Position numbers and translations under genes: made by a program
From: an uncultured archaeon
Lineage (GTDB): Archaea; Iainarchaeota; Iainarchaeia; Iainarchaeales; VGJJ01
Assembly: GCA_964480705.1 (NCBI GenBank)
Contig: CAYZPC010000002.1
Coordinates: 22,254 to 86,253 of the forward strand
Length of the DNA stretch: 64,000 bases
Reading direction: 5' to 3'
Shown: piece by piece, positions 11,368-56,487 of the stretch
Layout of the letters: every line of letters begins with the position of its first letter
How positions within the stretch are numbered: position 1 is the stretch's first letter
The notes under the pieces: generated by a model
Databases searched by the model: none
Seen by the model: the letters and a program-made list of their open reading frames with translations, nothing else
What the model was told of the DNA's origin: nothing

Positions 11368-11829
11368 TTACATCATTTTCAACAGTAAAGCGTCAATTCC
11401 ACTCTCGTGAAATCCAAGCGGGCCTTTTAATCCCACTCCTTGCTTGATTCCGATTCGACCAAATCCTTTGGAAGGAGAGTTGAGTCGGAACACAGGCTTG
11501 ATTCCAATTTTTTTCAGAGTGGTTTTTCCTTCCGCGAGTGCTTTGGCCAACGCGGCAATGGAATCCATTTTGTGGCTCTTCAAAAATTCCGTCGTGAGGG
11601 GTTTGTCTCCCTCTAATCGAGCGCGTTTTTCCAAGAGTGTCGTGAGTGTCTGCACGTTCACGGGACCATAGGCAGCGTGGTCTTTCACTTGGTGGAGCAT
11701 TCCATCCACGGATGGATTTTTTTCCACTAACACGCAGTGGTTTTTTCGGTCGAGCTGCAATGTTTGCAGTGCGCTGCGTGTTTCAGGTCGGACATTTTTG
11801 AGTCCTCGAATGCGGACAATGGCGTACAT
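11368..11829 (-). CDS. rpl30: 50S ribosomal protein uL30
   Basis: MYAIVRIRGLKNVRPE... L30/L7 family N-terminus. Confidence 0.9.
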   Translation of the reverse strand: MYAIVRIRGLKNVRPETRSALQTLQLDRKNHCVLVEKNPSVDGMLHQVKDHAAYGPVNVQTLTTLLEKRARLEGDKPLTTEFLKSHKMDSIAALAKALAEGKTTLKKIGIKPVFRLNSPSKGFGRIGIKQGVGLKGPLGFHESGIDALLLKMM

Positions 11830-12728
11830 TACTGGTGTCCCCCTGCGATTTGACTAAATTTGCGCTGCATATCCGGAGACATGCGCACACGGTTCAATTG
11901 TTCAATAGCATTGTAGGCGGCGCGAACATAGTTTAGTTTGGTGTCCGAGCTTCCTTTTGTTTTTCCCCAAACATCGGTGATTCCAGCAAATCGGAAAACG
12001 TCTTGAATTTGTTTTCCAACCACTAAGCCAGTTCCCTGCGGCGCAGGATAGAGTGTGACGCGCACCGAGCCGGCTTTTCCGGTTACTTTAAACGGAACAC
12101 TTCGTGTCGTGTTGGAAAAGTCTTCCCAACTTCCGCTGCCCACTTTCACAGGCATGAGTTTGAGTCGAGCGTCTCGTCCGGCTTTTCGAATGGCGGGAAA
12201 GCGTTCCTTGTCGGAGCCCATTCCTAATCCGATGTATTTTTTTCCGTCTCCCACTAAGACGAATGCGGCAAAGTTGAATTTTCGTCCAGAGGCTCGAACA
12301 TAGGTTGTTTTGCGCGTGTCAATCATTTGCTCTTGCAAATCCGGCACTAACATGTCGATGATTTCGCTTTCGAGGATGGGCAAGTGTCTCGACCACAATT
12401 CTTCCATGGTTTTGACTTCACCTGATTTGACAAGGCGTCCCGCTTCTGTTTTGGGAGTCCAATCGTCAATGACTTGCTGTTGCTCTCGAGATAATGAACC
12501 AGTGGCTGATGCTTCCATTTCTTTCAACTGTTCATCTGTCATGAGTTCTTTTCGAGAGACTTCTCCTCGTCGCGGTCCGCCGCGAGGTGCTCCGCGTGCT
12601 CCGCCGAATCCACCGCGTGCTCCGCCAAATCCGCCGCGTCCGCCTCTTCCTTCGCGAGGAGGTTTTCCGCGTGGAGCAAATCCACCAGGTCGTCCGGATC
12701 GGGGGGGTCGTTTCTTTTCGTCACTCAT
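11829..12728 (-). CDS. rps5: 30S ribosomal protein uS5 with ~75-aa RGG/Arg-Gly-rich N-terminal extension
   Basis: uS5 core (KYIGLGMGSDKERFPAIRKAGRDARLKLMPV; WGKTKGSSDT); N-terminus RGGRGGFGGARGGFGGARGAPRGGPRRG. Confidence 0.9.
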   Translation of the reverse strand: MSDEKKRPPRSGRPGGFAPRGKPPREGRGGRGGFGGARGGFGGARGAPRGGPRRGEVSRKELMTDEQLKEMEASATGSLSREQQQVIDDWTPKTEAGRLVKSGEVKTMEELWSRHLPILESEIIDMLVPDLQEQMIDTRKTTYVRASGRKFNFAAFVLVGDGKKYIGLGMGSDKERFPAIRKAGRDARLKLMPVKVGSGSWEDFSNTTRSVPFKVTGKAGSVRVTLYPAPQGTGLVVGKQIQDVFRFAGITDVWGKTKGSSDTKLNYVRAAYNAIEQLNRVRMSPDMQRKFSQIAGGHQ

Positions 12729-15566: not shown

Positions 15567-16112
15567 TCACCCCTGGATTTTCTCCACAATGTTTGTTCCA
15601 AATGTCTCGTGAACGAAGTTCATGGCTTCGTCTTTCGTAATCATGTGTTTCTTTCCAATGCTCGCAGGTCGGACGCGTCGTTTTTTGATGCGGTAGCCAG
15701 GCCGTTCAAGTGTCACAAGGACATCGAATCCGCGAATTCCTAATTTAGGATCGTATTTTGCTCCGGGCAAATCAATGTATTCTTTGATTCCGAATCCAAA
15801 GTTTCCAACCTTGTCGAAGCAGCGCTTCGTGAGCGTGTTTTCTTTGGCTTGCAATGCGGTCTTCAAGAATGCGTGTGCTTTTGTTTTGCGCAGCGTGACT
15901 TTAAGTCCAATGGGCAGTCCTTCTCGGATTCCCCACGTGGGAATTTTCACTTTACAGCGCGTTTGCACAGGTGTCATTCCGGTGAGTTTCTTCATGATGT
16001 CAGAGGCCTTGTTCAAGGGTTCGCCGGTCTGTCCCACACCCATGTTAATGGTGACTTTCTCCACGCGAATGGCGCGCATCGTATTTTTGGTGTTAGTCGT
16101 TGTGGAAGTCAT
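15567..16112 (-). CDS. rpl5: 50S ribosomal protein uL5 (start at internal Met MTSTTTN abutting eS4 stop)
   Basis: MRAIRVEKVTINMGVGQ...GFGIKEYIDLPG uL5 motifs. Confidence 0.9.
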   Translation of the reverse strand: MTSTTTNTKNTMRAIRVEKVTINMGVGQTGEPLNKASDIMKKLTGMTPVQTRCKVKIPTWGIREGLPIGLKVTLRKTKAHAFLKTALQAKENTLTKRCFDKVGNFGFGIKEYIDLPGAKYDPKLGIRGFDVLVTLERPGYRIKKRRVRPASIGKKHMITKDEAMNFVHETFGTNIVEKIQG

Positions 16113-16852
16113 TTGGCTTTCACCCCATTTGTGAGTGTCTTCAACCAATCAGCGGTGTGAGAGTCAATGACCATCACATTCACAGCGGTTGTTTGGAATG
16201 TGGCATTTCCTTCAGAGAGGCTCACGAGTTTGTCGCGCTTCATCGTTCCTTCTAAGATGGATTCGATTTTGGCAACTTCTCCCACGTGAGATCCGCCGGT
16301 AATCAAAACGCGGTTTCCTTTGGCGAAAGATAAGTGTTCGCTGACTTTCGTTCCTTCCACGTTGGTCAAAACCGAATCGCCCACATTGATTTTTCCGTCA
16401 ATTCCGCGGAATGTTTTTCCGTCGTGCGTTTGAATCATGAGTTTGTTTCCTTTGGCGAGTTGTTTTGAAACCACTTTCACAGGTTTTGTTTTGAGTGCGT
16501 TCTCGCTGGCTTCCATCACTTTTAATCGTCCTTTATCATCCAGCACCATTCGGTAGTTCTTTTTCAGACTGGGAATAGTGAGCGTGTCAAATAATCCTAC
16601 GGAGAACTGGTGTGACTTTCGGACTTTTCCATCCACTAAAACAGTTCCTTTCGAAATAATTTGTTTGGCTTCGCGGAGTGTTTTTGCCATGTTCAGCATG
16701 TCGCGCACGATGAATCCTAATGGAACGCTCGTGAGTTGGTTATGCGTGCCGGGCTTCTGTCGAATCGTCCAAACGAATTCTTTTCGTTTGAGGTGGCGAA
16801 TCGTTCCGACGGAGAGTCGCTTTTGCTTGTTTACCGTTCCTTTGCTTGACAT
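16109..16852 (-). CDS. rps4e: 30S ribosomal protein eS4 (S4e)
   Basis: RHLKRKEFVWTIRQKPGTHNQLTSVPLGFIVRD; KOW region. Confidence 0.9.
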   Translation of the reverse strand: MSSKGTVNKQKRLSVGTIRHLKRKEFVWTIRQKPGTHNQLTSVPLGFIVRDMLNMAKTLREAKQIISKGTVLVDGKVRKSHQFSVGLFDTLTIPSLKKNYRMVLDDKGRLKVMEASENALKTKPVKVVSKQLAKGNKLMIQTHDGKTFRGIDGKINVGDSVLTNVEGTKVSEHLSFAKGNRVLITGGSHVGEVAKIESILEGTMKRDKLVSLSEGNATFQTTAVNVMVIDSHTADWLKTLTNGVKAK

Positions 16853-21757: not shown

Positions 21758-22563
21758 TATTGACCACCCTTCTTCGCGAGTGCGTGCACTGCTGATTCGG
21801 TCCAGATGGTTAAGCGTCCGGCCAATGCACCGGGAGCTAAGTGTTCGGCGTTCAAGCTTTGAACTTGCACCACTTCAACACCCGGCAAGTTTCGTCCGGC
21901 TTTGTAAACGGGCTTTGTTCCGTCGGTGACAATCAATAATGATTTTTTCATTCGGAATCGCATTCCGCGGTTTTTGTTTTTTCCCGCGCGCGTGCGTTTA
22001 CTGTCTTTGGCTTTTTCCACATCTTTCACAACGTGCAAAGCAGTTAATGCTTTGACAATATCTTTTGTCTTCGCTGTGTTTTCAAACGTGGCGTCCACAA
22101 TCAAAGGGAAGACTTTGTCATCAAATGTGTGTCCGCGTGCTTTGACAATTTTGGCGTTCACGGATGCAGCAATCGCAGAGGCAATGGCTTTCTTTCGTTC
22201 TTTCACATTGATGCGTTCTTCGGTAACCGTTTCAACTTTCGGACCGTGCGCGCGAGGTCCGCCTACGGCTTGAGGGACGGAAGCAACTTTTCCGTATAAG
22301 ATTCCGCGCTTGTTTCGCAAACGGGGCAAGCGGGCGTGTCCAACGTTAATTGTTTTGTGCATCGTGGGCTTTCCGCGGACACCGATGTATTCCGCAGTGT
22401 TCATGCGTCCGGCACCGCGTTTGTGTCCAAAAGGTTGGACGCGCGTGGATTGCACGGCAAGCACGGCTCGCTTGATGAGTGTAGGATCATAATGCGTAGT
22501 GAAAATGGTCGGGAGTTGAATGTCTTTGACTTTGACACCATCTCGAGAGAAAACGGCAGGCAT
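21757..22563 (-). CDS. rpl4: 50S ribosomal protein uL4 (start at internal Met; TAATG overlap with uL3 stop)
   Basis: MPAVFSRDGVKV...; uL4/L1e family; long ORF to 22641 overlaps uL3 C-terminus. Confidence 0.85.
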   Translation of the reverse strand: MPAVFSRDGVKVKDIQLPTIFTTHYDPTLIKRAVLAVQSTRVQPFGHKRGAGRMNTAEYIGVRGKPTMHKTINVGHARLPRLRNKRGILYGKVASVPQAVGGPRAHGPKVETVTEERINVKERKKAIASAIAASVNAKIVKARGHTFDDKVFPLIVDATFENTAKTKDIVKALTALHVVKDVEKAKDSKRTRAGKNKNRGMRFRMKKSLLIVTDGTKPVYKAGRNLPGVEVVQVQSLNAEHLAPGALAGRLTIWTESAVHALAKKGGQ

Positions 22564-23833: not shown

Positions 23834-25807
23834 CTATTTTTGGCTTTTGGGGAGCCAAATTTCATCCATTTCATCAATGGGTGACTTTTCAGACCCCCTC
23901 ATTATGTAGTTTTCAGGGGCGTCATTAGATGCGTGTTGGGAAACGTACCAGAGGCCGATAACAGCCAATAACACGAGGATGCCCAACCAAAATCCCCCGC
24001 CCTGAACAACAAATCCAGTAATGGCGTTGGCAGCTGCAACAATCGGAATCTCATTCGTGGGTGCCGCACTCCCTTGGGAGGAAGGTGCAACGTTTTCCAA
24101 TTGAATCGTGTGCGTGTTGGTGTAACCGGCACTGATTACCTGCACGATTGCAATGCTTTTTCCCGCAAACATTTCAGCAGGAATGTACACGAGTGGCGTG
24201 TCTAATCCCGTGAGTTGAATTGTTTTTGAAAATGTTTGCGTTCCCGGTTTTGCAATCACATTCAGTGTGACTTCCTGCGTGAATGTGGATTTATTTTCTA
24301 ATTGCAATGCGAATTCGCGCGCACCATACAAGTTGAGCAGTGCGGGCGCGTTCACCAATTGCACCGGCGCATCATCCAATCCTGAAAACAACACGACACT
24401 TGTTTGGTCGGGTACCGTGCATCCTTGCAAATTTGTTTTGATAGTAATAATTTGTTCCGCATTGGTGTTTGAAACAAAAAGTGTTTGCAATTTCACCGTG
24501 TCGGCGGGAATAATTATTTTGGATGGAGAAATAGTTCCGCTCGTGCTTGAAATATACAGTGTTGCATCATATGCGAGAGGGTTGTTGAACAGCACATCAA
24601 TGCTTTTTTCTCCGCGCAGCACCGTAATGGGTTTCAATCCCGCATAAAATGAATTGCAGGATGCATTTTCCGTTCCAATGAAGCGGTATTCAAATCGTTT
24701 GGCATTCACGAGGCAGCTTCCTCCGTCCGTGAAGTGTCCTTTTACCGTGAGGAATGCATTTGCATCGAATGTTCCTGCATTGGAATATCCAATCGCGTCA
24801 AATGCAATTTCTTCCGAGGATTGTGATTCAACTTTCACAGGATTTGAAACCGGCTCGAATGCTACTTGGTAATTCTTATCTGCAAACGTGTATTCGTCCA
24901 CGTAAAAATGCTGGTCGGCATTATTGATGAGTGAGAACGTGTGTGAAGTTGTTTCGCCGGCACGCACGGAGACAAATGGAATGTTCACATTCAATTCAGT
25001 GCACACACCTGTTTGCACACCCGTGTCTTCTACCGTCACATCAAATGTTTCAGAGATGTCAGAGAATGAACAATCATATCCATTTTCAAATTCTCCGCGA
25101 ATTTCTACAAACACAGGATTTGTTTCATCGTCCGACACGCCTCGCGCGTCAATTTCAATCGTGTATGAATTCGTTCGGTTATTTTGAAGATTTTTTTCAA
25201 AATCAGAATCGGAAAAAGGAGGTTCCGCAGCGGCAGTGAATGAATCGCCGTCATCAAATACATCAAATCCTTGCAGAGTAAAATCATTGGAGGAATTGTT
25301 TGTCACGCGAACCGTGTGCAAAATAGTATCGTTTTCATTCAACGTCACATCATCGGCTTCAATTTGAATGAGTGAGCAAACATCGTCGCCGTCTTGAATA
25401 GTTACGTTCACCGTGAATGTTAAATCGGAAAATTCACAATCATCATTGTCTTCAAATTCTCCGCGGAGTTGAATGCGAAACGTTTCTTGTCGGTCGCCGT
25501 TTACATCGACGGTGTCGTAGCGCAGACGCAAGTCTTCGGATTCATCTTCGTTGATTTGATCCGGAAAATCATCCACGCTGATATCCAAAAAGGGACTTGA
25601 CTCTTGGACGCGCACGTCGTCTAATTCAAAGTCATCATTTCCATTGTTTTCAATGTCAAATGTAATCAAGCGGTTGTCGCGGTCTTCTGCAAACGTAACC
25701 GAAAGAGGAGAAATATCAATATCATTACACGAACTCGCAGCATAGCTCAATGAGAGCATACTGCCGAACATCAGGAGCAAAATTCCAAAGCGAAGGGCGT
25801 GAAGCAT
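23834..25807 (-). CDS. acidic repeat-containing cell-surface protein (signal peptide, three ~120-aa Cys-pair repeats, C-terminal TM anchor + cytoplasmic tail)
   Basis: N-terminus MLHALRFGILLLMFGSMLSLSYA; recurring (L/I)RGEFE(D/N)..DC.FSD motif; C-terminal GGGFWLGILVLLAVIGLWYV then 40-aa tail; very D/E/N rich. Confidence 0.6.
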   Translation of the reverse strand: MLHALRFGILLLMFGSMLSLSYAASSCNDIDISPLSVTFAEDRDNRLITFDIENNGNDDFELDDVRVQESSPFLDISVDDFPDQINEDESEDLRLRYDTVDVNGDRQETFRIQLRGEFEDNDDCEFSDLTFTVNVTIQDGDDVCSLIQIEADDVTLNENDTILHTVRVTNNSSNDFTLQGFDVFDDGDSFTAAAEPPFSDSDFEKNLQNNRTNSYTIEIDARGVSDDETNPVFVEIRGEFENGYDCSFSDISETFDVTVEDTGVQTGVCTELNVNIPFVSVRAGETTSHTFSLINNADQHFYVDEYTFADKNYQVAFEPVSNPVKVESQSSEEIAFDAIGYSNAGTFDANAFLTVKGHFTDGGSCLVNAKRFEYRFIGTENASCNSFYAGLKPITVLRGEKSIDVLFNNPLAYDATLYISSTSGTISPSKIIIPADTVKLQTLFVSNTNAEQIITIKTNLQGCTVPDQTSVVLFSGLDDAPVQLVNAPALLNLYGAREFALQLENKSTFTQEVTLNVIAKPGTQTFSKTIQLTGLDTPLVYIPAEMFAGKSIAIVQVISAGYTNTHTIQLENVAPSSQGSAAPTNEIPIVAAANAITGFVVQGGGFWLGILVLLAVIGLWYVSQHASNDAPENYIMRGSEKSPIDEMDEIWLPKSQK

Positions 25808-25917
25808 GTATATAATATCACCCAGAACCATTAAATAAGAATACTTTTCCCGTGAATGAGTGAAGAATTAAACGAGGGAATAACGGCCATTAACGAAGTG
25901 TTTGAACGAACCCGCCC

Positions 25918-27801
25918 TTACTGCGGATGACCATCTTCTTCCATCATTTGCTTCAACCGACGCAAAATCTCTTGTTTTTCGTCATTTGTCGGTGTTTTGG
26001 AAGTTTGTGGGGCGGTGGTTAGTGCTCCTTCCAATTGGGAGGATTGTCGCTGAAGGGTGTTTTTGAGCTCGCTGGGGATTCCCACATCATTGTCTTTTTC
26101 TTCTTGGGCTTTACGGTGTTCTTTTTCTTTCTGGGATAAATAGTCCAAATCCGAGGCAGATAGTCCTTCCACATCCTCGAAGGGCAAACTCTCCAGCGCT
26201 TCTTCTTCACTAATTTCCTGCTCCATCGCCGATTCCATTCCACTTGAATGCGCGGGCGCCGAGGGGGCGGTGTAGGCATCAGCGTCTTCGACTTTCAATT
26301 CTTCATCAATAGACGCGCGTATTTTTTTCTCAGGTAAAACAGGTCGAGCCGCAGTATCTATGGTTGCAATTGAATTTTCGCGCGAGTGAGATGAATCATC
26401 AGTTGAGTGTGTTCCAAATGGTTGTTTCCACGGCATGGCATCACTCACGGAAGATGAAGGCGATTGTGCTTGGGGAGTGGTGCGTGCCACCCAGGGCGGA
26501 ACATAGGGTGCTGATTTCGCAGCAGGAGATGGTGCGGACACTCGTGTAGGAATGGTTGCGGGTGAGGGAGTTGAAATGATTGGATTTTTTTCTGCAGTTG
26601 GCAATGGTGTGTTTACGCGCGGCGCGGGAGTAAATTCTTTTTTGGTTTCGATTGGCTCGCGCGCAGTATTCATGGGCAACGGAGCAGTAGGGTAAATGGA
26701 TTTTTTTTCGTGAATGACCGCAGGCACGGGCTGAGTAAGCGCAGGCACATTTGTTTTTTCGCGTGCGATAGTTGCAATGTCAACTCGCGCAATGGAGGGA
26801 GGTGTTTGAGTAGTTTTCACGGGCGAAATGTCAGATGTTTTTTCACTTAATGGAGAAACGGTGCTCGCGGCTCGTGGAATAGGTGCGATGGGAGCAATGG
26901 GTTCTATGCTCGCGCGCGCGTTGGCAACAGCAGGGTTGCGTGCAGCCGCGGCATAAGGTGATGGAGCAGTTGATTTAATCGGGCTGGGCGAGACAGCAGG
27001 TGCAGTGGGAGGAGTTTGTTTTTCTCCAAATATTTTTTTCCAAAAAGATTGTTTGGGTGCAGATGATTTTGCTGCGAGCGTTGGCGTAGGAGATGGTTGC
27101 GCAGGCAGTCGTTGTGCGGGCGCAGGTGTTTGAGTGAGCATGCGTGCGGTTGGAATCGTTCGTTCTCCTGGAGGTAGAATGGGAGTCACGCGCGGCGCAG
27201 GGGAAGATGGGGGTGCGGCCTGTCGTGGAGAGGAAATGGGTGGAGCGAGTGGTTTGTTGGATGGAAGGGGTGTTGATGAAACGGGCGGCGCGCGCGGGGG
27301 AGCAGCGGCTTGTGCAGCAGTGGGAGATGGTTTGGGCAGGGTGGCAAGTCCGCGCTGAATGTAGGGCGGGTAAGGCATGTTGGAATAATAGTGTGGAACG
27401 CGCGGCGCGGGAGGCGCAGGTGATGAAGTTGTTGGTGTGGATGCGGGAGTGCGATTGGGTGCTTGTGGCAAGGACGGTGAAGCAAATGCTGATTTGGATG
27501 TTGTCGGATATACATTTTTGAGCGGCGCAGTGGGCGAGGGGCGAGAAGTGGTTGCGAGGTGAGTGTCCATTATTTCATCCAGTTGCTGCCGCATCGCTGC
27601 CTGTGCTTGCGTGCTGGCAACGGTAGGTTGAGTGCTTTGTAATGGAACTTTTTCTACGCGCGGTTTTCCAAACACGGCTAGAGAAATTTTTTTAGCAAAT
27701 CCTGGAGTGAAATCGTTTCGGGGCAATTCGCCGAGGCGTTGTTTCTCTCTTCTTTTTTGGAGAAACTCATTGATTTCATCCACTTCTTCTTGGGCGGGCA
27801 T
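25918..27801 (-). CDS. proline/alanine/serine/threonine-rich low-complexity protein (627 aa), charged N-terminal 50 aa, acidic C-terminal ~120 aa; no signal peptide
   Basis: 1.9-kb uninterrupted frame; PAP/APP/SPT repeats throughout; all competing ORFs in the region are short. Confidence 0.55.
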   Translation of the reverse strand: MPAQEEVDEINEFLQKRREKQRLGELPRNDFTPGFAKKISLAVFGKPRVEKVPLQSTQPTVASTQAQAAMRQQLDEIMDTHLATTSRPSPTAPLKNVYPTTSKSAFASPSLPQAPNRTPASTPTTSSPAPPAPRVPHYYSNMPYPPYIQRGLATLPKPSPTAAQAAAPPRAPPVSSTPLPSNKPLAPPISSPRQAAPPSSPAPRVTPILPPGERTIPTARMLTQTPAPAQRLPAQPSPTPTLAAKSSAPKQSFWKKIFGEKQTPPTAPAVSPSPIKSTAPSPYAAAARNPAVANARASIEPIAPIAPIPRAASTVSPLSEKTSDISPVKTTQTPPSIARVDIATIAREKTNVPALTQPVPAVIHEKKSIYPTAPLPMNTAREPIETKKEFTPAPRVNTPLPTAEKNPIISTPSPATIPTRVSAPSPAAKSAPYVPPWVARTTPQAQSPSSSVSDAMPWKQPFGTHSTDDSSHSRENSIATIDTAARPVLPEKKIRASIDEELKVEDADAYTAPSAPAHSSGMESAMEQEISEEEALESLPFEDVEGLSASDLDYLSQKEKEHRKAQEEKDNDVGIPSELKNTLQRQSSQLEGALTTAPQTSKTPTNDEKQEILRRLKQMMEEDGHPQ

Positions 27802-27890
27802 GCGCCAAAAGACCGAGTTTGAGAATAAAAAAGAACTGTTTAAACGTGAAAAAAAGTGTAGGAAAAAGGTTTCCCTTTTTCCTTAGGTAT

Positions 27891-28691
27891 TTACTGTTTT
27901 CGTCCGCGCCAGGCAAATATGCCAAACACAAGGAGCACGAGCAGTCCTAACCAGGGTAGGTTGGCGCCGGTGAATAGTCCTGTGAGTGATGCAGTGGTTG
28001 CCGCGGGGGCGGGAGCAAATACTTCTTCTGGAACACTTCTTCCATCGGCCTGTCCAATGATGAGGGGATTAGGACCCGTTTCGGTTAGTTCGATGGGAAT
28101 AGGATTAGTCACGAGTGTCCCTGCGCTTGGATTGCTCGGCTTCACCGGGCCCACGACCCATAATGGGTTGAATGAAAAGAGCGGGGTGAATTCTTCTTCC
28201 GGAGAATTTTCTTCGGGTTGAATTGGGGGCTCGGGCTGCGGCTGGCAGAATACCGTATCGGCTGCTAAGCATGGATCAATGGGGCATCCGATAGTGTCAC
28301 TGACAGTACATGGTGCAGGAGATGGAGGCACGGGTCCGACGGGCACACACCCGCCAGGAACAGTGCACGGGTCATTATTTCCGGTCGAAACTATTTTGGG
28401 AGTGCGGTGTTTTCGTCCCGACTCTGCCGGAACTATTTCTACCGCGTCAACAGCAGAATCATTTATCGAATTAATTTTACTTTCATTTTGTTTTTCATCT
28501 ACGGTTTCATTTTCATTTATTTTTTCAGTTGAGTTTGTTGTTTCACTCGCGTCAGAAGAATTAGTTTCCGAAGGTGTTGCTTCGTTTTCTGCTGACGAGG
28601 AAGTAGCGTCGCTGGTCACTTCTTGCGCGTGAACAGTGGAGAATAGTGTCGCCATCACAAGTAATAGAATTACAAATGTTATTTGTCTCAT
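27891..28691 (-). CDS. secreted Ser/Thr/Pro-rich protein with Cys-Pro cluster and C-terminal TM anchor ending in RGRKQ
   Basis: Start at MRQITFVILLLVMATLFSTVHA (GGAGGT 7 nt upstream); C-terminus LPWLGLLVLLVFGIFAWRGRKQ resembles archaeosortase-type sorting signals. Confidence 0.55.
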   Translation of the reverse strand: MRQITFVILLLVMATLFSTVHAQEVTSDATSSSAENEATPSETNSSDASETTNSTEKINENETVDEKQNESKINSINDSAVDAVEIVPAESGRKHRTPKIVSTGNNDPCTVPGGCVPVGPVPPSPAPCTVSDTIGCPIDPCLAADTVFCQPQPEPPIQPEENSPEEEFTPLFSFNPLWVVGPVKPSNPSAGTLVTNPIPIELTETGPNPLIIGQADGRSVPEEVFAPAPAATTASLTGLFTGANLPWLGLLVLLVFGIFAWRGRKQ

Positions 28692-28778
28692 GCAATTACC
28701 TCCAGTAATATACCGAGTGTGCGTCAATACCTGTTTTAATGAATCGGAAAAATGGTCGTATTAAGTGCGTTAACTCGC

Positions 28779-32740: not shown

Positions 32741-34237
32741 TTAGGGAGCCAATTTAGTAAATGTCACGGGCACCCGTACGAGGTTTCGGCGCAAGCCCCA
32801 CCCGCCCGGGTTGTGATTGTCTTGGTTCTGCATCCAGTACAAATACACCGTGTCATTGGCCGTTTCAAAATTTCGGCTCGTGGAATCGTGGTCGATGATA
32901 GATGGATATGCTTCTTGGTCGATGCTCAATGCTTGCTGGGCGAGTGTGGGGTTGTCGCACGGCGGCCATCCTAAAACGGTTTCACGCAACAAGTGGGGTT
33001 TGCTCCACGTGATCAAATCACTAGACAGAATATACCAGAATCCGCACGTCAAAACCCCTGCGTCATTGTTCAACGTAGCTGCGCCCACGATCATGTACCG
33101 TTGCAAATACGTGTTGTACGTCAAGCTTCCATTCAGCGAACCATTTTTGGGCAGCACCACGGGAGTACAGAATAAATCCTGCGGATTTGCCGGTTCATTC
33201 GGATACGGATTAGTAAGTGGAATCGAAAAACTTTCTCCATTCCAAAATTTCCAGGAGGAAGGATCGCTCAAATTATTCGTGCGCATCACACACGCCACAT
33301 CATCTCCTCCTTTTGGATTAGACAAGCGCCGCACCATCGCGTAATAGAATCCATCTTCTCGTTTCACAATGGTGGAGGGTTCCATGTACCCGTACGGCGC
33401 GGGTCGGTCAAATTTTTGCAAGCGCTGATTGTAATTTCCCGAGTTCGCATCCCACTGCAGAGGGAGGATGGCCACCAAATGGTTGGGGCTGGTAGGTTGA
33501 GTAAACGTGTGTCCGCCGTCCGTTGAGCGCGCGTAGGAAATAAAATTATACCAGCATCGGTTGCTCGGATCGGTAACACCAGGCAGGCACAATGGAGAGT
33601 AGGGGTCGTGATACTCGTTGTGCACGAGCGCATGAATGGTTTTTCCATCTTCCGTGTATGTGGGACCGACCCACTCTTGATGGTCAAATGTTTCAACCGG
33701 CCATTTATCTCCGCTGCGCAGCACGGGTGTGCAGTCTCGGTGCAAATCATTGAAAGTAGTGCCGTACATCCAATAATTATCCGGCGCGTTTCCTGATGCG
33801 AGAACTAATTCTCCGAGATGATTGCGAAAGGGATGCGCCACCATGTCGGGCAAATCCATTTGAGCGCACGCATCTTCTTGATAATCAAAAACCGTTTCTT
33901 CGCTACCGAGGGTGAGCGTGAGTGGAACATCCGCAGCTTCTTCTGGAGTAATCACACGGCAGTCTGCGGCGCATAATATTTCATTTTCAATTCCTTCGCA
34001 CACACCATCTCCGCACACGGGAACGGGTGGAGAAACACACGTTTGAATAGTAGCAGGTTTGTTCACGGTTGTTCCGCAGGCATTGGCATCCGAGCATGCG
34101 CGTGTTTGAGAATTATTTTCGCAGGTTGACCAATCGTTACACGACCAATTTTCCGTACATGATTCCGGCGGCGTCACGCATCCGGAAATAAAAATGAGTA
34201 AAATGAATGAAAAAAATAGAATGGGGCGCGGGAACAT
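32741..34237 (-). CDS. secreted Cys-rich protein with an Asp-box (BNR-like SxDxGxTF) motif, possibly a beta-propeller glycosidase-like fold; probable lipoprotein
   Basis: Start at MFPRPILFFSFILLIFISGC (upstream 70 codons of the track ORF overlap EF-2); 12 Cys in first 80 mature residues; YARSTDGGHTF; many Trp. Confidence 0.5.
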   Translation of the reverse strand: MFPRPILFFSFILLIFISGCVTPPESCTENWSCNDWSTCENNSQTRACSDANACGTTVNKPATIQTCVSPPVPVCGDGVCEGIENEILCAADCRVITPEEAADVPLTLTLGSEETVFDYQEDACAQMDLPDMVAHPFRNHLGELVLASGNAPDNYWMYGTTFNDLHRDCTPVLRSGDKWPVETFDHQEWVGPTYTEDGKTIHALVHNEYHDPYSPLCLPGVTDPSNRCWYNFISYARSTDGGHTFTQPTSPNHLVAILPLQWDANSGNYNQRLQKFDRPAPYGYMEPSTIVKREDGFYYAMVRRLSNPKGGDDVACVMRTNNLSDPSSWKFWNGESFSIPLTNPYPNEPANPQDLFCTPVVLPKNGSLNGSLTYNTYLQRYMIVGAATLNNDAGVLTCGFWYILSSDLITWSKPHLLRETVLGWPPCDNPTLAQQALSIDQEAYPSIIDHDSTSRNFETANDTVYLYWMQNQDNHNPGGWGLRRNLVRVPVTFTKLAP

Positions 34238-34274
34238 GAGTGTTCCACGCGCTCCCTGATTATTAATGCTTGCT

Positions 34275-36467
34275 TTATTCGAGGAAGAAATGATACGCCT
34301 TGACTTCGGGGTCCATTCCTTTTCGCTTTCGCACTTCTTCAACCGTTTTGCGCTGCAATTCAGGAGGCAAAATTTCATATCCGTGATATTCAGCTGTCCA
34401 AATAACACGTCCTTGTGCCGCACCACGAATGGCTTGAGAGAATCCAATTAATTCTTTCACGGGCGCGAGTCCAATAATAATCGTCGCGTCTCCTTCGTTT
34501 TTGATTTCAGTGATTTGCGTGCGTCGCTGCTGCAATTCTTTACTCACGGCACCCATGTATTCTTCAGGGGTGGTGATTGTGAGCAATTGTTTTGGTTCTT
34601 GCAACACTGCTTTGGCCGCGAGCATACACGCGAAAATCGTGCGTGACACCACTGGAATAATTTGCGAGGGACCGCGATGGATAGCGTCTTCGTGGAGTTT
34701 TGCATCCACTAATGTGACCTTCACGCCGTGGACTTCTTCCTTGGCAAGAGGGCCGCCGTGCATAGCTTCTTGGAATCCCTGAATCACGAGTTCGCGGATT
34801 TCGTGCAAGGCTTGAATTCCTTTGGTTCCATCCACGAGCAAATTGTAGTTTTCAATCGCCCATACTTTTTTGGATTCGTCAATGTCGATTCCCGCATTCT
34901 GGAATTTTTCAATCCATTCTTTGTCTTTCAACTTGACTTTTCCTTGAACTTTGTTTTCAATTAACTTGTTTTGAATTTCGGCAGGAATGGGTTCAACCAT
35001 CATCAACAATTTGTTGTGCTTGTTGGGAGACTTTCCTTCCAATTCGGGAGAAGTTCCTGTGATGGTTTCGTGATACACCACAATCGGCGGAGACACGGTA
35101 ATTCCAACGCCGTGTGTTTTCTCAATACGGTATTGGTTGATTTCCAAGTGCAATTCTCCCATTCCCGAAAGTAAATGTTCTCCGGTTGTTTGGTTGATGC
35201 TTGCTCGAAGGTTAGGGTCTTCTTTCGTGAGCTGTCGAATCACTTCAATCAACTTAGGCAAGTCCTTTGTTTGCTTGGCTTCGATTGAAACCGTAATAAC
35301 CGGTTCAACGTTTGTTTTGAATGATTCAAATTCGCGCATTTCTTCTTCAGCAACGGTTTGTCCAGCGTATGCTTCGCGCAAACCCACAATCGCTCCAATG
35401 GAGCCGGCAGGAATGGCTTCTACTTCCACGAATTCGGGCCCCATGTACACTCCCACGCGGTTAATCTGAGCTTCTTTTTGCGACCCAACGAGTTTCACTT
35501 TCACTCCTTTTTTGAGTGTTCCAGAGTACACGCGTCCAGTGGCAATGTCTCCCGCGTGCGGGTCTACTGAAACATCGGTAACCATCATGGCAACGGGACC
35601 ATTTTGGTTGCATGCAATCATGGACTTTCCAACTTCACTTTCTTGTTCGCCTGTCCAAATAACGGGTGTGCGGTATTTTTGTGCTTCCGTGGGGTTGGGC
35701 AAATGTTTGACGACCATTTCAAAGATGGTGTCTTCGAGCGGTGATTTTTGTGCCAATTCTTTTTGCTTGTCTGTTTTCATTAAATCGTACACTTGTTTGA
35801 AATTAATTCCCGTGCGTGCCATGGAGGTGATGGACACAGCCCAGTGGTTGTATGCACTACCAAAGCAAACGCTTCCATTTCCGGGATTGACTTGCCATAA
35901 TTCTTCTTTTCCGGCGGGGGCGTTTTTTCGAATGAGATTGTTAACTTGTGTGATTGTTTTCACGAAGCGTTTTTGCATTTCGGCTTCATCCACTTGCAAT
36001 TCGTTGATGAGTCGGTCCACTTTGTTGATGAACAAGGTGGGTTTGACATTTTCGCGCAATGCTTGTCGAATAACGGTTTCGGTTTGAGGCATGACTCCTT
36101 CAACCGAGTCCACGACCAGAATGACTCCGTCCACGGCTCGCATGGCTCGGATAACTTCTCCACCGAAGTCCACGTGTCCGGGCGTGTCAATTAAGTTGAG
36201 CAAATATTGTTTTCCGTGCACCGTGGGAACAAGTGAGATGTTTGCCGCGTTGATGGTGATTCCGCGTTCTTGTTCTTGATCTTCAAAATCCATGAACTGC
36301 TGCTTTCCAGCGAGTTCTTTGTTGATGAGTCCGGCAGCCGCGATGAGGTTGTCAGAGAGAGTTGTCTTACCGTGATCGATGTGGGCAACGATTCCTAAGT
36401 TTCGGACATCTTGCTGTCCACCCATCAGTTTTTGTGCGGCTGCGGCCATTTCTTCTTTTCGACCCAT
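34275..36467 (-). CDS. fusA: translation elongation factor 2 (aEF-2)
   Basis: AHIDHGKTTL, DTPGHVDF GTPase motifs; domain IV loop DAIHRGPSQIIP. Confidence 0.95.
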   Translation of the reverse strand: MGRKEEMAAAAQKLMGGQQDVRNLGIVAHIDHGKTTLSDNLIAAAGLINKELAGKQQFMDFEDQEQERGITINAANISLVPTVHGKQYLLNLIDTPGHVDFGGEVIRAMRAVDGVILVVDSVEGVMPQTETVIRQALRENVKPTLFINKVDRLINELQVDEAEMQKRFVKTITQVNNLIRKNAPAGKEELWQVNPGNGSVCFGSAYNHWAVSITSMARTGINFKQVYDLMKTDKQKELAQKSPLEDTIFEMVVKHLPNPTEAQKYRTPVIWTGEQESEVGKSMIACNQNGPVAMMVTDVSVDPHAGDIATGRVYSGTLKKGVKVKLVGSQKEAQINRVGVYMGPEFVEVEAIPAGSIGAIVGLREAYAGQTVAEEEMREFESFKTNVEPVITVSIEAKQTKDLPKLIEVIRQLTKEDPNLRASINQTTGEHLLSGMGELHLEINQYRIEKTHGVGITVSPPIVVYHETITGTSPELEGKSPNKHNKLLMMVEPIPAEIQNKLIENKVQGKVKLKDKEWIEKFQNAGIDIDESKKVWAIENYNLLVDGTKGIQALHEIRELVIQGFQEAMHGGPLAKEEVHGVKVTLVDAKLHEDAIHRGPSQIIPVVSRTIFACMLAAKAVLQEPKQLLTITTPEEYMGAVSKELQQRRTQITEIKNEGDATIIIGLAPVKELIGFSQAIRGAAQGRVIWTAEYHGYEILPPELQRKTVEEVRKRKGMDPEVKAYHFFLE

Positions 36468-48035: not shown

Positions 48036-48568
48036 GAATGTGGAAAAAAATTCGCCGCAAGTGGGGCCGCGCCCTTTTTTTGAAAAATATTAATAAGCTC
48101 ACGCAGCGAATTGAACGCAATTATGCTGAGTTAGAACACATCTACGAACCATTAGGTGACATTGAAAATATGTTTGCGCTGAATAAAAAAATTGGCGCAG
48201 ACATACAGCAGATTGAGCACGAAAAACTGAAACGTAAAAAGGGATGGCGCGGCCTGATTCGCGCGGCGTGGGCATGGAGGGCCTATCGCGATTTGCGCGA
48301 ACAAAAATTTATCAAAAGCACCAGTTCAGAACAATACATCAAAGCTCGCGATGCATTGATTCGGATTGATTTATTGGAGCTGGGCCTGAAGAAAGAAATT
48401 CTCTCCGATAGAGAGGCATCTGAATTGTTTGTGCTTCGCCGTCAAAAAAAGAATTTTGAGAAGGCAGTTGCTAATTATCAAAAAGCGGTTGTGCTGGCAG
48501 CTGCGCGAAAAGAAAGGAAGTCTATTTCTTCGCGAAAATCTTCTCCGCACACGTCCGGGCAGAAATAA
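48017..48568 (+). CDS. hypothetical basic alpha-helical protein (183 aa)
   Basis: ORF track only; overlaps CrtYd by 19 bp and the convergent crtI 3' end by 47 bp. Confidence 0.3.
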   Translation: MVAEEMRMWKKIRRKWGRALFLKNINKLTQRIERNYAELEHIYEPLGDIENMFALNKKIGADIQQIEHEKLKRKKGWRGLIRAAWAWRAYRDLREQKFIKSTSSEQYIKARDALIRIDLLELGLKKEILSDREASELFVLRRQKKNFEKAVANYQKAVVLAAARKERKSISSRKSSPHTSGQK

Positions 48569-50072
48569 GCACCATGGGCATTCCTCCCCCTGGATGGGTG
48601 CTCGCACCCACAAAATACAAATGGTTGAATTCTTCGCTTTTTTGAGAGGGTCGGAAAACGCTGCTCTGCATGAATGTGGGAGAAAGTCCAAACGTCGCGC
48701 CGAAATTCATTCCGCTCAGCGCTTCCCACTCATTTGGAGTGAGCATTTCCTGCATGCGGATGTGTTTTTTCAAATTAGTGAGACCATTTTTTTCAAGTTG
48801 CGCAATGATTTTTTCTGCAAACTCTTTTTTTATTGAATTCCAATCGATGGGATGTCCATTTTTGGGATCGTTGGAGGGAACGGGAACGAGCACATACAGC
48901 AAATGCTTTCCCTTCGGGGCTAATGTTGAGTTGGTGCGCGAGGGCACGTTCACATAAATGCTTGGACTTGTTGAGAGTACTTTTTGTTCGAATAATTCGT
49001 GGAAGTTTTTCAAAAAATCCTCGCAGAAAAACACATTGTGATGCAGCAGCTGCGGGTAATCCGTGTCCACTCCCAGATAGAGCATGAATGCCGAGCACGT
49101 GTATTCGAGTTTTTTTAATTTTTCATCGGAATATTTTTTCCGAGATGTAGCGTGAATCAATTTTGAATACGTGGCCGGCAAATCCACATCGGACACTATT
49201 TTTTCCGCGCGAATAACTTCATTTGTATCGAGGCGAATTCCCGTTGCGGTGTTATTTTCAATCACAATCTCGGAAACATTTTTTCCATAATGGATTTTTA
49301 CTCCTAATTCGAGCGCGAGTTTTTCTATTTCGCTCACAATGGAGTATATTCCATTTTGGGGGTACCACACGCCCTGCGCTAATTCCACGTAGGGGACAAT
49401 GGTGTATGTTGCCGGCGTTAAGAGTGGGCTTTGTCCTAAGTACATGCTCTGAAAGCTGAATGCGAGTTTTATTTTTGGATTCGTAAAAAAGGTTGACATG
49501 TGGTCCCACATCGAGTGGAAGCCGTCCGCGTGTAAGAATGATAAAAATTTTCCCGAGAGGACGATATCCCAAATGGATGTGGGGGATTGGGCGATGAAAT
49601 TGGAGTAAACGTTTTCATACACCTCGTATTCGTGTTCGAGAAAGCGCAAAAACCCTCGCGCATCTTCAGGAGAAACGCGTTTTATTTCGCGGAGCATTTC
49701 GGGAAGATTCGAACTTACATCTAAGTGTTGTGCGTCCCAAAAATGCAAGCGGTACGATGGGGTGAGCAGGTTGATGGGCAGCACATCCTGCATTTTTTTT
49801 CCGCAGTAAGCAAATAACTCTTCAAATTCTCCCGGCATGAGGAGGAAAGTCGGTCCCAAATCAATGGTGTATCCTTTTACCTTTCGCTGCGCCGCTCTTC
49901 CCCCGGGAAAAGCGTTTTTTTCGTATATTTCCACGCGCTTACCCTGTTTAGCGAGGCGGCATGCGAGGGCAAGCCCCCCGAGTCCGGCGCCAATAATGAT
50001 GATTTCAGGCTCCCCTGCCGGAGAAGAGTGGAGTGTTTTGGCTCGTGTGCGGGAAGAAGATGGGGCTGCCAT
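48522..50072 (-). CDS. crtI: phytoene desaturase family FAD oxidoreductase (CrtI-like)
   Basis: IIIIGAGLGGLALACRLAKQGKRVEIYEKNAFPGGRA dinucleotide fold; ~500-aa CrtI length; downstream of crtB. Confidence 0.85.
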   Translation of the reverse strand: MAAPSSSRTRAKTLHSSPAGEPEIIIIGAGLGGLALACRLAKQGKRVEIYEKNAFPGGRAAQRKVKGYTIDLGPTFLLMPGEFEELFAYCGKKMQDVLPINLLTPSYRLHFWDAQHLDVSSNLPEMLREIKRVSPEDARGFLRFLEHEYEVYENVYSNFIAQSPTSIWDIVLSGKFLSFLHADGFHSMWDHMSTFFTNPKIKLAFSFQSMYLGQSPLLTPATYTIVPYVELAQGVWYPQNGIYSIVSEIEKLALELGVKIHYGKNVSEIVIENNTATGIRLDTNEVIRAEKIVSDVDLPATYSKLIHATSRKKYSDEKLKKLEYTCSAFMLYLGVDTDYPQLLHHNVFFCEDFLKNFHELFEQKVLSTSPSIYVNVPSRTNSTLAPKGKHLLYVLVPVPSNDPKNGHPIDWNSIKKEFAEKIIAQLEKNGLTNLKKHIRMQEMLTPNEWEALSGMNFGATFGLSPTFMQSSVFRPSQKSEEFNHLYFVGASTHPGGGMPMVLISARTCAEKIFAKK

Positions 50073-50093
50073 ACTGAAATATACTTTTGCACC

Positions 50094-50978
50094 CTATTTT
50101 GTTTTAATGTGCGCGGAAAGCGCTGTTTTTTCGGCGTGCAATAATTCTTTTTTTCGTTCATCTGAAACGTAAACGCGTTCCGTGTACACATCGTAGTTTC
50201 TTTTTTCTATCTCATTCAGTATTTCACGGTAGAATACGAGGCTGAGGCGCATTCCTAATTGTGCTTCGCGCGGAAGGTGTGCAATTCCTTCTTCGGAGCG
50301 CGTGTAATAGTCCCGCGCCCGCGTGATTTGATAATGCATCATTTTTCGAAAGGCGTCATTTTGTTCGCGCGATGCAATTTGGGAGTGAGTGTAATTGAAT
50401 TGTTTCAACTCGTCCTGGGGCAAATATACTCTTCCTGCATCGTGGTCTTCTTTTACGTCGCGCAGAATATTAGTGAGTTGCATCGCCACACCTAATTCAA
50501 TTGCATGTTCTAATGCGGAATGCGGCGCGCGGAGGACGTATGCCATGAGCAATCCGGGGATTGCTGCGGCAGAGAAGCAGTATTCGTATAGTTCGTCAAA
50601 ATTTTCATATGATTTTTTGTCTAAATCTTTTTCCAACCCATCCATTAGGCGGAAACCCCATTCGCGTGGAATAGCATACTGTCTGCACGTCTGCACAAAC
50701 GCATGCAAAATAGGGTCGGGGGAGGTTTCATTCTCCCACGCCAGAGTGAGATTGTTTCTCCACTCATTCAATCGAAGTTTTTTTTCCGCGAGCGATAAAT
50801 TTCCATCCACGATTTGATCAGTAACACGGCAAAAACCATAGGTTGCGTACGCGGCTAAGCGTTCTTTTTCAGGCAGATGCTCGGCAGCAAGGGAAAAACT
50901 AGTGGCGTGTTTTCGGCAAAGTTTTTCGGAATGAGAAAAATCAATGGCGGAAGTGTCCATTGTATTGGAAAGGCTCAT
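50094..50978 (-). CDS. crtB: phytoene synthase (squalene/phytoene synthase family)
   Basis: YCFSAAAIPG and QLTNILRDVKEDHDAGRVYLP motifs. Confidence 0.85.
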   Translation of the reverse strand: MSLSNTMDTSAIDFSHSEKLCRKHATSFSLAAEHLPEKERLAAYATYGFCRVTDQIVDGNLSLAEKKLRLNEWRNNLTLAWENETSPDPILHAFVQTCRQYAIPREWGFRLMDGLEKDLDKKSYENFDELYEYCFSAAAIPGLLMAYVLRAPHSALEHAIELGVAMQLTNILRDVKEDHDAGRVYLPQDELKQFNYTHSQIASREQNDAFRKMMHYQITRARDYYTRSEEGIAHLPREAQLGMRLSLVFYREILNEIEKRNYDVYTERVYVSDERKKELLHAEKTALSAHIKTK

Positions 50979-51053
50979 TGATACTATGTGGGTTTTTGAT
51001 TTAATAAAAGTGCTCTCGCACGCGCGAGAAGATGCGTGAATTAGAATGGGGAA

Positions 51054-52253
51054 TTACCACCCGTAATGGGCAGCGCGCGAGTATCCGAATGCGAGGAATG
51101 CATCCACCACGCCTTTTTGGTATAAGTCATAGTTGTGCGAGAGCACGTTGAATCCGACTTTTGCTTTATCCACGGCAGTCAGGTTGGATAATTCTTGAGG
51201 CATTAAGTGTCCAATGCGGTTTAACTCGTCTTCGGTAAAATTGTAGAGCGCATTTTTTCCTTTGATTATTTTTCCATAGGAGGGGAATTCATTGCGCCAC
51301 TTTTTTTCATACGTTGACAAAAAAGTTTTTGAAAAATTGGAATGAGTGAATGCGTCTTTTGCTACTTCCGCAGCCATGCGTCCGCTGACTAATCCTAATT
51401 GGGTTCCCCCTTCAAATAGTGGAGAAGTGAATCCCGCCGCATCGCCAATCAAAATGATTCCATCTCCCACCGTGTTTTGCACGGGTCCCGATGAGGGAAT
51501 GGGTCCGCCGAATGTTTTCACTATTTTTTTGTTTTGCCAATTCATTTCTTTCACGAATTGGTCCAAATACATTTTTGCTTTGGTGATATCAGTAGTCACA
51601 AGCCCCACATTGGCTCGCCCATCATTTTTGGGAATCATCCACAAATAGCCATGGGGAGAGAGTCGAGGCCACAAATAAAAGTCTAAATAATTTTCATGTG
51701 GAATATCAAGCATTTCATATTGGATTCCTGTCGTGACACTAAAGCGTGGGTTCATGTTAAGCATGCGGTTGGCCACTCCCGCGGCGCCGGAAGCGTCGAT
51801 AACCATGCGTGCGCGCACCATTCCTTGAGATGTTTGAATCTCCCACACATCATTTGTTCGGGCTAAACTGGTTACGCGCGTGGATAATGATAAGTGTGTG
51901 CCCGCATTCTGTGCCTCGTTTGAAAGCCATTTTTCAAACGCGTGTTTCTCTAAAACATATCCGGCTTCAGTTAATTTCACTTTGTGCGAGTCGGGAAAAA
52001 TAACATTGACTCCTTTGACCGGAAGGGCGATGACTTCTTTGGGAAATTTCATGTTGATGCGAACTTCAGCCATTTCACTTAAGCATTCCCCGCAGTGCAC
52101 CGGGTCTCCCACGCTGGCGTGTTCTTCAAGAATTACTGTCTTGAGCCCCATTTTAGACGCATGAATCGCCGCACTTCCCCCAGCGGGGCCTGCACCAATG
52201 ATGGCAATATCATACAGTGTCTGCGTGTCTAAGGTCATAGTATCATCGGCCAT
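51054..52253 (-). CDS. geranylgeranyl reductase family FAD-dependent oxidoreductase
   Basis: YDIAIIGAGPAGGSAA, HCGECLS motif characteristic of archaeal GGR. Confidence 0.8.
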   Translation of the reverse strand: MADDTMTLDTQTLYDIAIIGAGPAGGSAAIHASKMGLKTVILEEHASVGDPVHCGECLSEMAEVRINMKFPKEVIALPVKGVNVIFPDSHKVKLTEAGYVLEKHAFEKWLSNEAQNAGTHLSLSTRVTSLARTNDVWEIQTSQGMVRARMVIDASGAAGVANRMLNMNPRFSVTTGIQYEMLDIPHENYLDFYLWPRLSPHGYLWMIPKNDGRANVGLVTTDITKAKMYLDQFVKEMNWQNKKIVKTFGGPIPSSGPVQNTVGDGIILIGDAAGFTSPLFEGGTQLGLVSGRMAAEVAKDAFTHSNFSKTFLSTYEKKWRNEFPSYGKIIKGKNALYNFTEDELNRIGHLMPQELSNLTAVDKAKVGFNVLSHNYDLYQKGVVDAFLAFGYSRAAHYGW

Positions 52254-56486: not shown

Positions 56487-56487
56487 A

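Follow-up and report, generated by a model that had tools for sequence, protein, structure and literature searches.

A 627-amino-acid (aa) open reading frame (ORF) in the genome of an uncultured archaeon of the Iainarchaeota is almost certainly a genuine gene for an intrinsically disordered protein (IDP), in which a long, basic, proline-rich spacer joins two conserved helical end modules. It lies at 25918..27801, on the minus strand, of a 64,000-nucleotide (nt) stretch (positions 22,254 to 86,253 of contig CAYZPC010000002.1, assembly GCA_964480705.1), which is referred to here as the window, and a check of the sequence confirmed its ATG start and TAA stop. The product sits between two exported neighbours and, judged by its sequence, is itself very probably cytoplasmic. 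We tentatively suggest that it may act as a sub-membrane disordered adaptor or tether serving an envelope cassette, a proposal to which we give a little less than an even chance.

The gene, its orthologues and its annotation

Fourteen full-length orthologues of 444–668 aa were reconstructed, from the window and 13 further loci, and all share the start MPxxEEVDEINE. The frame is uninterrupted in 13 of them, and one (L008) contains a single stop. The first-pass annotation had predicted a protein-coding ORF with these coordinates and this length, both of which are correct, and had named stop codons at orthologous loci as the observation that would count against it; the outcome favours the gene, with 13 of 14 frames open and the one stop found in a contig of 4x coverage. 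Across the variable middle region the coding frame has no stops in any of the 14 orthologues, compared with 2–29 in each other frame. The ratio of non-synonymous to synonymous substitution rates (dN/dS), estimated by the Nei-Gojobori method for unsaturated pairs only, is 0.00–0.04 in the N-terminal module (N-module), about 0.25 in the Pro-rich middle and 0.06–0.22 in the C-terminal module (C-module); most values for the two ends lie below 0.1. Comparative alignment of the upstream DNA also revealed a conserved element at a fixed distance from the start codon:

27818..27831, minus strand: TATA-box-like element TTTTTATTCTCAAA, 17–30 nt upstream of the ATG

It is present at the same position in 16 of 16 orthologous loci, with variant forms in the divergent L016 and L017, and in the window it ends 17 nt before the ATG. 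By analogy with archaeal promoter architecture, this spacing suggests that TTTTTATTCTCAAA is an archaeal TATA box for a leaderless or near-leaderless mRNA.

Because this frame alone is kept open, each of the three regions has a dN/dS clearly below 1, and the start, promoter and end modules are conserved, we regard the ORF as a real gene with the architecture of an IDP. The same observations refute the idea of a chance long ORF in a C-rich coding-strand stretch, to which we attach virtually no weight, although it can draw on the strong GC skew across the region (+0.35 to +0.51 at window positions 26500–27500) and on the frequency with which gene callers reject most of the ORF and call antisense ORFs.

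The interrupted orthologue is on a 4.1 kb contig (CAZKAN010000075.1, about 4x coverage). Its stop falls near nt 1859–1861, within the conserved segment EISEEEALE*LPFEEVEGL (stop as asterisk), and the frame continues unaltered downstream; a sequencing error or a recent pseudogene is the probable cause.

An initial homology search returned one protein of 98% identity, one of 659 aa and 41% identity from a Diapherotrites metagenome-assembled genome (MAG), and one 564-aa relative. A profile of the C-terminal part matched 14 'short' proteins of 70–182 aa, and inspection of their contigs showed these to be truncated gene calls. The long frame is fully open in L004 (2503..4515) and L003 (8777..10375), where small antisense ORFs had been called over the Pro-rich part instead. 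Gene callers systematically truncate this family. In database entries P0004–P0017, and at L003 9100–10029 and L004 3000–3725, the family is cut to its last 70–182 residues and spurious antisense calls are added. Truncated calls and spurious antisense ORFs have left the family largely invisible in current annotations, which is a lesson for annotation more generally.

An exhaustive phmmer search of 1.84 billion cluster representatives, using the window N- and C-modules joined together, found 18 proteins at E <= 0.001, apparently all belonging to one narrow Iainarchaeia/Diapherotrites family. Ten loci were obtained when one genome was scanned for each GTDB species; they are described as Candidatus Iainarchaeum or 'uncultured archaeon', and the submitter of one gave it the label Thaumarchaeota. 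The most divergent members (P0024, 384 aa; P0028, 646 aa; P0019; P0030) retain both the N-module and the C-terminal helix, together with a segment reading ..D[LW].YLE.KEKEH.. and a PPW motif in the spacer. The full protein had no match in Pfam, NCBIfam, PHROGs or PADLOC, the isolated N- and C-modules gave a best E-value of 0.17, and searches of PDB sequence profiles gave best E-values of 0.1 and 0.96. As far as these sequence comparisons reach, this is a new orphan family, narrowly distributed in Iainarchaeia/Diapherotrites-type MAGs. The likeness to eukaryotic or bacterial linker and scaffold proteins pointed out in the first-pass annotation is an analogy only, with no homology to any known family.

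Architecture of the protein

The protein is rich in Pro (15.9%), Ala (12.8%), Ser (10.5%) and Thr (9.1%), and has no Cys. Its Pro content stands 6.4 standard deviations (z = 6.4) above the mean of the 44 other window genes (4.4 +/- 1.8%), and its content of order-promoting residues is the lowest among the 45 window genes. PAP, APP, SPT and PPR repeats had been described from the sequence, but they reflect compositional bias: Tandem Repeats Finder detected no tandem array within the ORF, and no 6-mer recurs in the protein. Short words do recur, with PAPRV occurring three times and 25 repeated 4-mers present vs 10 +/- 3.4 in shuffled sequences.

AlphaFold2 (AF2) gave the whole protein a mean predicted local distance difference test score (pLDDT) of 46.7, and the model and the orthologue alignments agree on three parts, with net charges of 0, +24 and -17 from the N- to the C-terminus. 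Both lines of evidence support the earlier description of a long, disordered, Pro-rich protein with helix-prone, charged ends. The three-part layout given in that description also holds, but its boundaries shift: the N-terminal part is about 85 aa and not about 50, the middle about 405 aa and the C-terminal part about 137 aa. Low pLDDT, indels, conserved ends and conserved islands place the protein in the functional class of IDPs with conserved end modules and short linear motifs, which is not a homologous family. Proteins of this class are common in eukaryotes. In archaea, long IDPs that bind through motifs are regarded as rare, and the family provides a clean, conserved example, in which a disordered spacer of about 400 aa is under purifying selection. 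That such a protein is unusual for an archaeon, as had been remarked, agrees with a report of long disordered regions in about 2% of archaeal proteins (PMC9693201). The features of the protein, all on the minus strand, are as follows:

27547..27801, minus strand: N-module, aa 1–85 (column conservation, dN/dS, AF2)
27664..27705, minus strand: basic amphipathic helix PGFAKKISLAVFGK, aa 33–46 (orthologue pattern; AF2 helix 33–44)
26332..27546, minus strand: basic Pro/Ala/Ser/Thr-rich disordered spacer, aa 86–490 (AF2, alignment)
27346..27405, minus strand: island a, PRVPHYYSNMPYPPYIQRGL, aa 133–152 (conserved in the window's subclade)
27022..27048, minus strand: island b, SFWKKIFGE, aa 252–260 (AF2 helix 253–257; interfacial scale)
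26482..26505, minus strand: island c, YVPPWVAR, aa 433–440 (family alignment)
26413..26436, minus strand: island d, MPWKQPFG, aa 456–463 (family alignment)
25921..26331, minus strand: acidic helical C-module, aa 491–627 (AF2, conservation, dN/dS)
26113..26217, minus strand: acidic core E[IL]SEEEA[LI]..LPF[ED][ED]VEGLS.SDL.YL..KEKEH, aa 529–563 (invariant columns in 13–16 sequences)
25936..25986, minus strand: extreme C-terminal amphipathic helix NDEKQEILRRLKQMMEE, aa 606–622 (conservation; AF2 pLDDT about 89)

The N-module aligns without gaps at a mean column conservation of 0.71–0.82, and follows the pattern MPxxEEVDEINE[FY]L...GELP...P.F.K[KR]...A[IL][FW]GK...LQSxQPTYxS..AQxA[MV]R.QL.E[IV]M. 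Helices are predicted at residues 4–22, 33–44 and 62–85, with pLDDT values of 67–85 within them. The PGFAKKISLAVFGK helix is a candidate for binding a membrane or a partner protein.

The spacer (about 405 aa, 21.5% Pro, net charge +24) is modelled at a pLDDT of about 30–37; its column conservation is 0.22–0.47 and indels are frequent. The segment between the end modules varies from 230 to 461 aa among the orthologues, and in each of the 13 orthologues measured this middle part carries a net positive charge. Within it are four short islands containing aromatic residues. Island a is kept in the window's subclade (L001, L004, L006, L008, L009 and L010) with the pattern PRVPHYYxxMPYPPYIQRGL, and the other subclade has IPR[YF]PESNVW at this position. 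Island b follows the pattern [SP]FWKK[IL]F, or WGFWNK in the other subclade, and is the sole helix that AF2 predicts inside the spacer (residues 253–257). It is also the most favourable 8-mer of the window protein on the Wimley-White interfacial scale, and the equivalent aromatic patch (FWKK, WGFW or FQYFF) ranks first on that scale in 13 of 14 orthologues. Island c (Y-x-PPW-[VI]-x-[RK]) is found in essentially every member examined, including the most divergent, with L002 and L012 having only the PPWV core. Island d reads LPWKQPFG in one subclade and KPWV[ST]G in the other. Across 18 family members, Pro precedes 36 of 70 Trp residues, where about 11 would be expected.

The C-module (about 137 aa, net charge -17) has a column conservation of 0.6–0.85 and predicted helices at residues 492–507, 549–571, 576–595 and 606–622. 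Modelled alone it reaches pLDDT values of 94–95, with a predicted template modelling score (pTM) of 0.27, and a Foldseek search against the PDB found no match (best E = 5.5). Confidently predicted helices with so low a pTM and no structural match would fit binding or oligomerisation better than an enzyme or a compact domain. In the predicted helices the occupancy of heptad positions a and d is unremarkable and gives no indication of a coiled coil. The acidic core is partly lost in the most divergent members, P0028 and P0030, which lack LPFEEVEGL and retain L[ST]..D[LW].YLE.KEKEH. No element of the family is more strongly conserved than the last helix: K.[EA]IL.RL[KR].M[MI] is found in all members, including P0019, P0024, P0028 and P0030, the fuller pattern K.EILRRLK.M[MI]EEE (core EILRRLKxMM) is near-invariant, and its helical hydrophobic moment (0.77) is the highest in the protein.

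Genomic setting, cellular location and possible function

The window is an archaeal housekeeping stretch, all on the minus strand. Its genes include those for RNA polymerase subunits B and A (both split), S7, EF-2 and EF-1alpha, followed by genes for LemA, a TPM-domain protein, a Ser/Thr/Pro-rich (STP-rich) anchored protein, the 627-aa protein and an Ig-like surface protein, and then by L3-L4-L2 on through SecY, with S2 further on. The first-pass annotation placed the gene between a surface protein and an anchored STP-rich protein, and both neighbours were confirmed. The surface protein and then the L3 operon follow the gene in every locus that is long enough, those of the most divergent members included. 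Where upstream sequence exists it usually encodes the STP-rich anchored protein, often preceded by LemA and the TPM protein. The genes and gene parts of the cassette are:

23834..25807, minus strand: downstream surface protein, 657 aa (665 from the first ATG), adjoining the gene in every locus that reaches that far
23837..23944, minus strand: 36-aa cytoplasmic tail of the downstream protein, ending in DEMDEIWLPKSQK (orthologue comparison)
27891..28727, minus strand: upstream STP-rich secreted protein with C-terminal [TS]G[LF]F[TS]GAN, transmembrane (TM) segment and R.RK; also at L003 7616–8659 and L004 1625–2470
28779–29723 and 29730–30323, minus strand: LemA protein and TPM-domain protein, preceding the cassette in the window, L004 and L016

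The absence of a signal peptide and TM segment noted earlier extends to all 14 orthologues, none of which has a TM or signal-like segment (maximum Kyte-Doolittle 19-mer < 0.9; no hydrophobic N-terminus). The family has no Cys, and its N-glycosylation sequons are close to expectation (42 observed vs 36 expected). Both neighbours differ in this respect: the downstream surface protein has about 8 Cys per protein and 148 sequons where 97 would be expected, and the upstream STP-rich protein, also Cys-containing, has 30 vs 18, with about 7–8 Cys in each of the two neighbours. Lack of export signals, lack of Cys and lack of a sequon excess relative to the neighbours favour a cytoplasmic location. Two options had been left open at the outset, a cytoplasmic linker or scaffold and a periplasm-like spacer exported by a non-classical route, and it is the cytoplasmic one that these contrasts support. 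An exported, pseudo-periplasmic spacer or matrix protein would suit the two flanking envelope proteins and the Pro/Ser/Thr-rich composition, of a kind often seen in extracellular segments that span the wall or are glycosylated. We consider it very improbable in view of the acidic, conserved N-terminus MPxxEEVDEI, the highly charged Lys/Arg/Glu helices at both ends, and the Cys and sequon counts given above.

The downstream protein (656–758 aa among orthologues) has a signal peptide, a conserved SCNDI[DE]I at the start of the mature part, Ig-like domains, one C-terminal TM helix and a cytoplasmic tail. Its Ig-like repeats give a weak Pfam hit, and no sequence relative was found in the PDB. The signal peptide and the single C-terminal TM helix would together place the tail in the cytoplasm. 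Among orthologues the tail is 35–45 aa long and closes with a stretch of acidic residues and then W[ML]x0-1P, and this acidic motif is present in 13 of 13 complete orthologues (window, L001–L004, L009–L015 and L017), for example as DEMDEIWLPKSQK, EEEDEPWMHPRR or FDEVWMPSPKE. Elsewhere in the available contigs no credible gene carries it, the lone other match being a likely spurious plus-strand ORF (15697–16134). Conservation of a motif in the cytoplasmic part of a surface protein implies that something in the cytoplasm reads it. The 627-aa protein is the only conserved cytoplasmic protein of the cassette, and itself carries PW-type motifs.

These features suggest, tentatively, a sub-membrane adaptor or tether built as two heads on a long string, with the N- and C-modules joined by a basic Pro-rich spacer of about 400 aa. 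The aromatic-basic patches and the basic spacer could hold the protein near the anionic membrane, while one helical module would engage the acidic W[ML]xP tail of the Ig-like surface protein encoded downstream. At its other end, most likely through the C-terminal amphipathic helix, the protein might bind a cytoplasmic partner or self-associate. The Pro-rich spacer would set reach and flexibility, which would account for a length and sequence that drift alongside a composition, a charge sign and a reading frame that are kept. Cytoplasmic location, membrane proximity, tail binding and the tether function are what we infer from sequence and models. Functional coupling to the neighbouring envelope protein is, in our estimation, a possibility of much the same standing as the tether itself, or slightly weaker. 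The more specific version, in which the protein is the cytoplasmic reader of the [DE]-rich W[ML]xP tail on the major Ig-like (S-layer-like) surface protein of Iainarchaeia, seems unlikely as it stands. If it were true, this would be the first case described in archaea of a short linear motif that links a surface-layer protein to a long, disordered tether beneath the membrane, comparable to the coupling of adhesins to the cytoskeleton in the Mycoplasma attachment organelle or to eukaryotic tail-adaptor coupling. In a DPANN archaeon, such a system could serve to place or gather envelope proteins, or to relay signals of cell contact. To our knowledge, almost nothing is known of the inside organisation of DPANN envelopes, and our literature search found nothing relevant on Iainarchaeia envelope biology or on a link between DPANN surface-protein tails and IDPs. 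Coupling, if real, would provide a testable handle on envelope–cytoplasm communication in an uncultured archaeal lineage.

Several observations weigh against the tether proposal. The cassette stands between the EF1a-S10 and L3-L4 operons, both universally conserved, where unrelated lineage-specific genes could accumulate and stay linked. Separate promoters make the gene and its neighbours conserved neighbours and not a proven operon. Acidic residues flank the C-terminal helix and argue against membrane binding by it. The hydrophobic moments also failed to single out the segments proposed to bind the membrane. For a membrane-targeting amphipathic helix of the MinD/FtsA/SepF type the signs are mixed: the FWKKIFG-type islands are the best interfacial patches in 13 of 14 orthologues, but the Eisenberg hydrophobic moments of the helices at 33–44 and 253–257 fall outside the top 12, and these helices are internal and not terminal.

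The protein might instead be a cytoplasmic block-polyampholyte scaffold or condensate former unrelated to its neighbours, in which the +24 middle and the -17 C-module drive self-association or binding to nucleic acids or ribosomes, and the position beside ribosomal operons reflects only high, growth-coupled expression. The charge-block architecture conserved in all orthologues, the long disordered region with helical 'stickers', the placement between the EF1a-S10 and L3 operons and a promoter separate from those of the neighbours are all compatible with this. No RNA- or DNA-binding motif or family match was found, however, and a condensate would leave unexplained both the Trp-Pro islands and the strict adjacency to a surface protein whose intracellular tail bears a conserved motif; we think it rather unlikely. 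[quoted passage not shown] A Pro-rich flexible linker with a terminal binding peptide is a layout typical of division tethers. Residues 606–622 form the most conserved element, near-invariant and with the top hydrophobic moment (0.77; pLDDT about 89). The helix stands at the extreme C-terminus and combines a Leu-based face with Arg/Lys charges, as does MIM1 of the Vps2/CHMP1 class of ESCRT-III (PMC5840170), a resemblance in form only. It covers about 9 residues and is statistically weak, the protein has no ESCRT-III/Snf7 core domain or family match, no MIM2-like Pro motif was found in it, no MIT/AAA or FtsZ gene lies within the 64-kb window, and ESCRT machinery has been reported absent from DPANN archaea (PMC10117752). 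We consider this explanation distinctly improbable.

A mimic of the ribosomal stalk tail was also examined, in which E[IL]SEEEAL..LPF would imitate the C-terminal peptide of aP1 and recruit aEF1A/aEF2 from or to a membrane site. Eight consecutive residues resemble what we take to be the archaeal aP1 tail (..SEEEAL..L..LF-G), and the gene lies near those for EF2 and EF1a. The hallmarks of the stalk C-terminal domain are a long helix, the adjacent and strictly conserved pair L106-F107, and a free carboxylate at Gly108 that is salt-bridged to aEF1A (PMC4267659). The segment in the 627-aa protein is internal (aa 529–545 of 627, about 85 residues from the end), its L and F are split by Pro, AF2 predicts a helix of only 4 residues (532–535), there is no Pfam Ribosomal_60s match even at E <= 10, and the motif is lost in divergent family members. 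No aP1/aP0 gene was found in the window or the orthologous loci. The mimic was rejected as extremely improbable.

Returning to the adaptor or tether, its closest parallels among known systems are in layout. Tethers of the ZipA and TonB type run from a membrane-proximal end through a long, variable, Pro-rich spacer to a distal binding module that is conserved, and the 627-aa protein likewise combines conserved ends with a Pro-rich linker that is free to drift. It differs in lacking a TM anchor and a globular C-terminal domain (pTM 0.27) and any sequence or fold similarity to these proteins, in being confined to one DPANN class, and in its linkage to surface-protein genes and not to division genes. 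HMW1, HMW3, P65 and P200 of Mycoplasma, components of the terminal-organelle cytoskeleton, have acidic Pro-rich (APR) domains. These proteins occur in organisms with small genomes; they are cytoplasmic and largely disordered, and lie beneath a membrane with large adhesins that bear cytoplasmic tails. Here, in an archaeal host, the spacer is basic (+24) and not acidic, and there is neither an EAGR-box or other Pfam match nor homology. Eukaryotic endocytic and adaptor IDPs use Trp-based short linear motifs of the DPW or WxxF type, and the likeness to them consists of long disorder with a few conserved Pro-Trp motifs. In one subclade the tail of the downstream protein also reads [DE]PW (EEPWMHP), a three-residue match that carries no statistical weight. 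The analogy stays at the level of motifs, as no appendage- or ear-type receptor domain was found here.

Transcription signals and other genes of the window

Three further elements lie in the intergenic DNA on either side of the gene:

27860..27883, minus strand: terminator-like hairpin and T-run after the upstream gene (consensus scan only)
25828..25847, minus strand: B recognition element (BRE)/TATA-like promoter of the downstream gene, AAAGTATTCTTATTTAATGG, at the same distance to the ATG in 12 orthologous loci
25852–25864, minus strand: direct repeat 5' of this BRE/TATA, TTCACTCATTCAC in the window and ATTAAC-N2-ATTAAC in most orthologues

The hairpin stands between the upstream gene and the promoter of the 627-aa gene. 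The BRE/TATA of the downstream gene follows the pattern AAAGT..TATTTAAGG, and the direct repeat TTCACTCATTCAC is a candidate transcription-factor site. Comparison with orthologues indicates that the downstream gene probably starts at its second ATG (25807) and not at 25831.

The upstream STP-rich protein contains a conserved GPDPAI[IV]..ADGR motif. It could not be assigned to a family, and no NCBIfam sorting-domain model matched it, but its C-terminal tripartite signal resembles sorting signals of the archaeosortase/exosortase type. The TPM-domain protein ends in a long Gly-rich tail, GFGGFGRGGFGGTGGFGGGGGGFGGGMSGGGGAGGKW.

Between the genes for EF-2 and EF-1alpha is an ORF (32741–34447, minus strand) with no Pfam or NCBIfam match. 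The encoded protein has a signal of lipoprotein type (LLIFISGC), and its N-terminal region is rich in Cys; the listed start, a TTG, overlaps the gene for EF-2, and the true start is probably the internal MFPRPILFF. Ribosomal protein uS5 (11829–12728, minus strand; 299 aa) carries an N-terminal extension of the RGG/GAR (glycine/arginine-rich) type, GRGGRGGFGGARGGFGGARGAPRGGPRRG, which we presume to be unusual for an archaeal uS5 and which recalls, as we understand it, the RGG N-terminus of eukaryotic uS5/RPS2. Genes resembling those for phytoene/squalene synthase, an amine-oxidase-type desaturase and geranylgeranyl reductase are found at 48522–52253 and 54130–58200 (both minus strand), and elsewhere in the window are genes for succinate dehydrogenase/fumarase, a protein with an Fe/Mn superoxide dismutase domain, and DsbA. 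The gene set of the window is apparently metabolically rich and oxygen-exposed for a DPANN archaeon.

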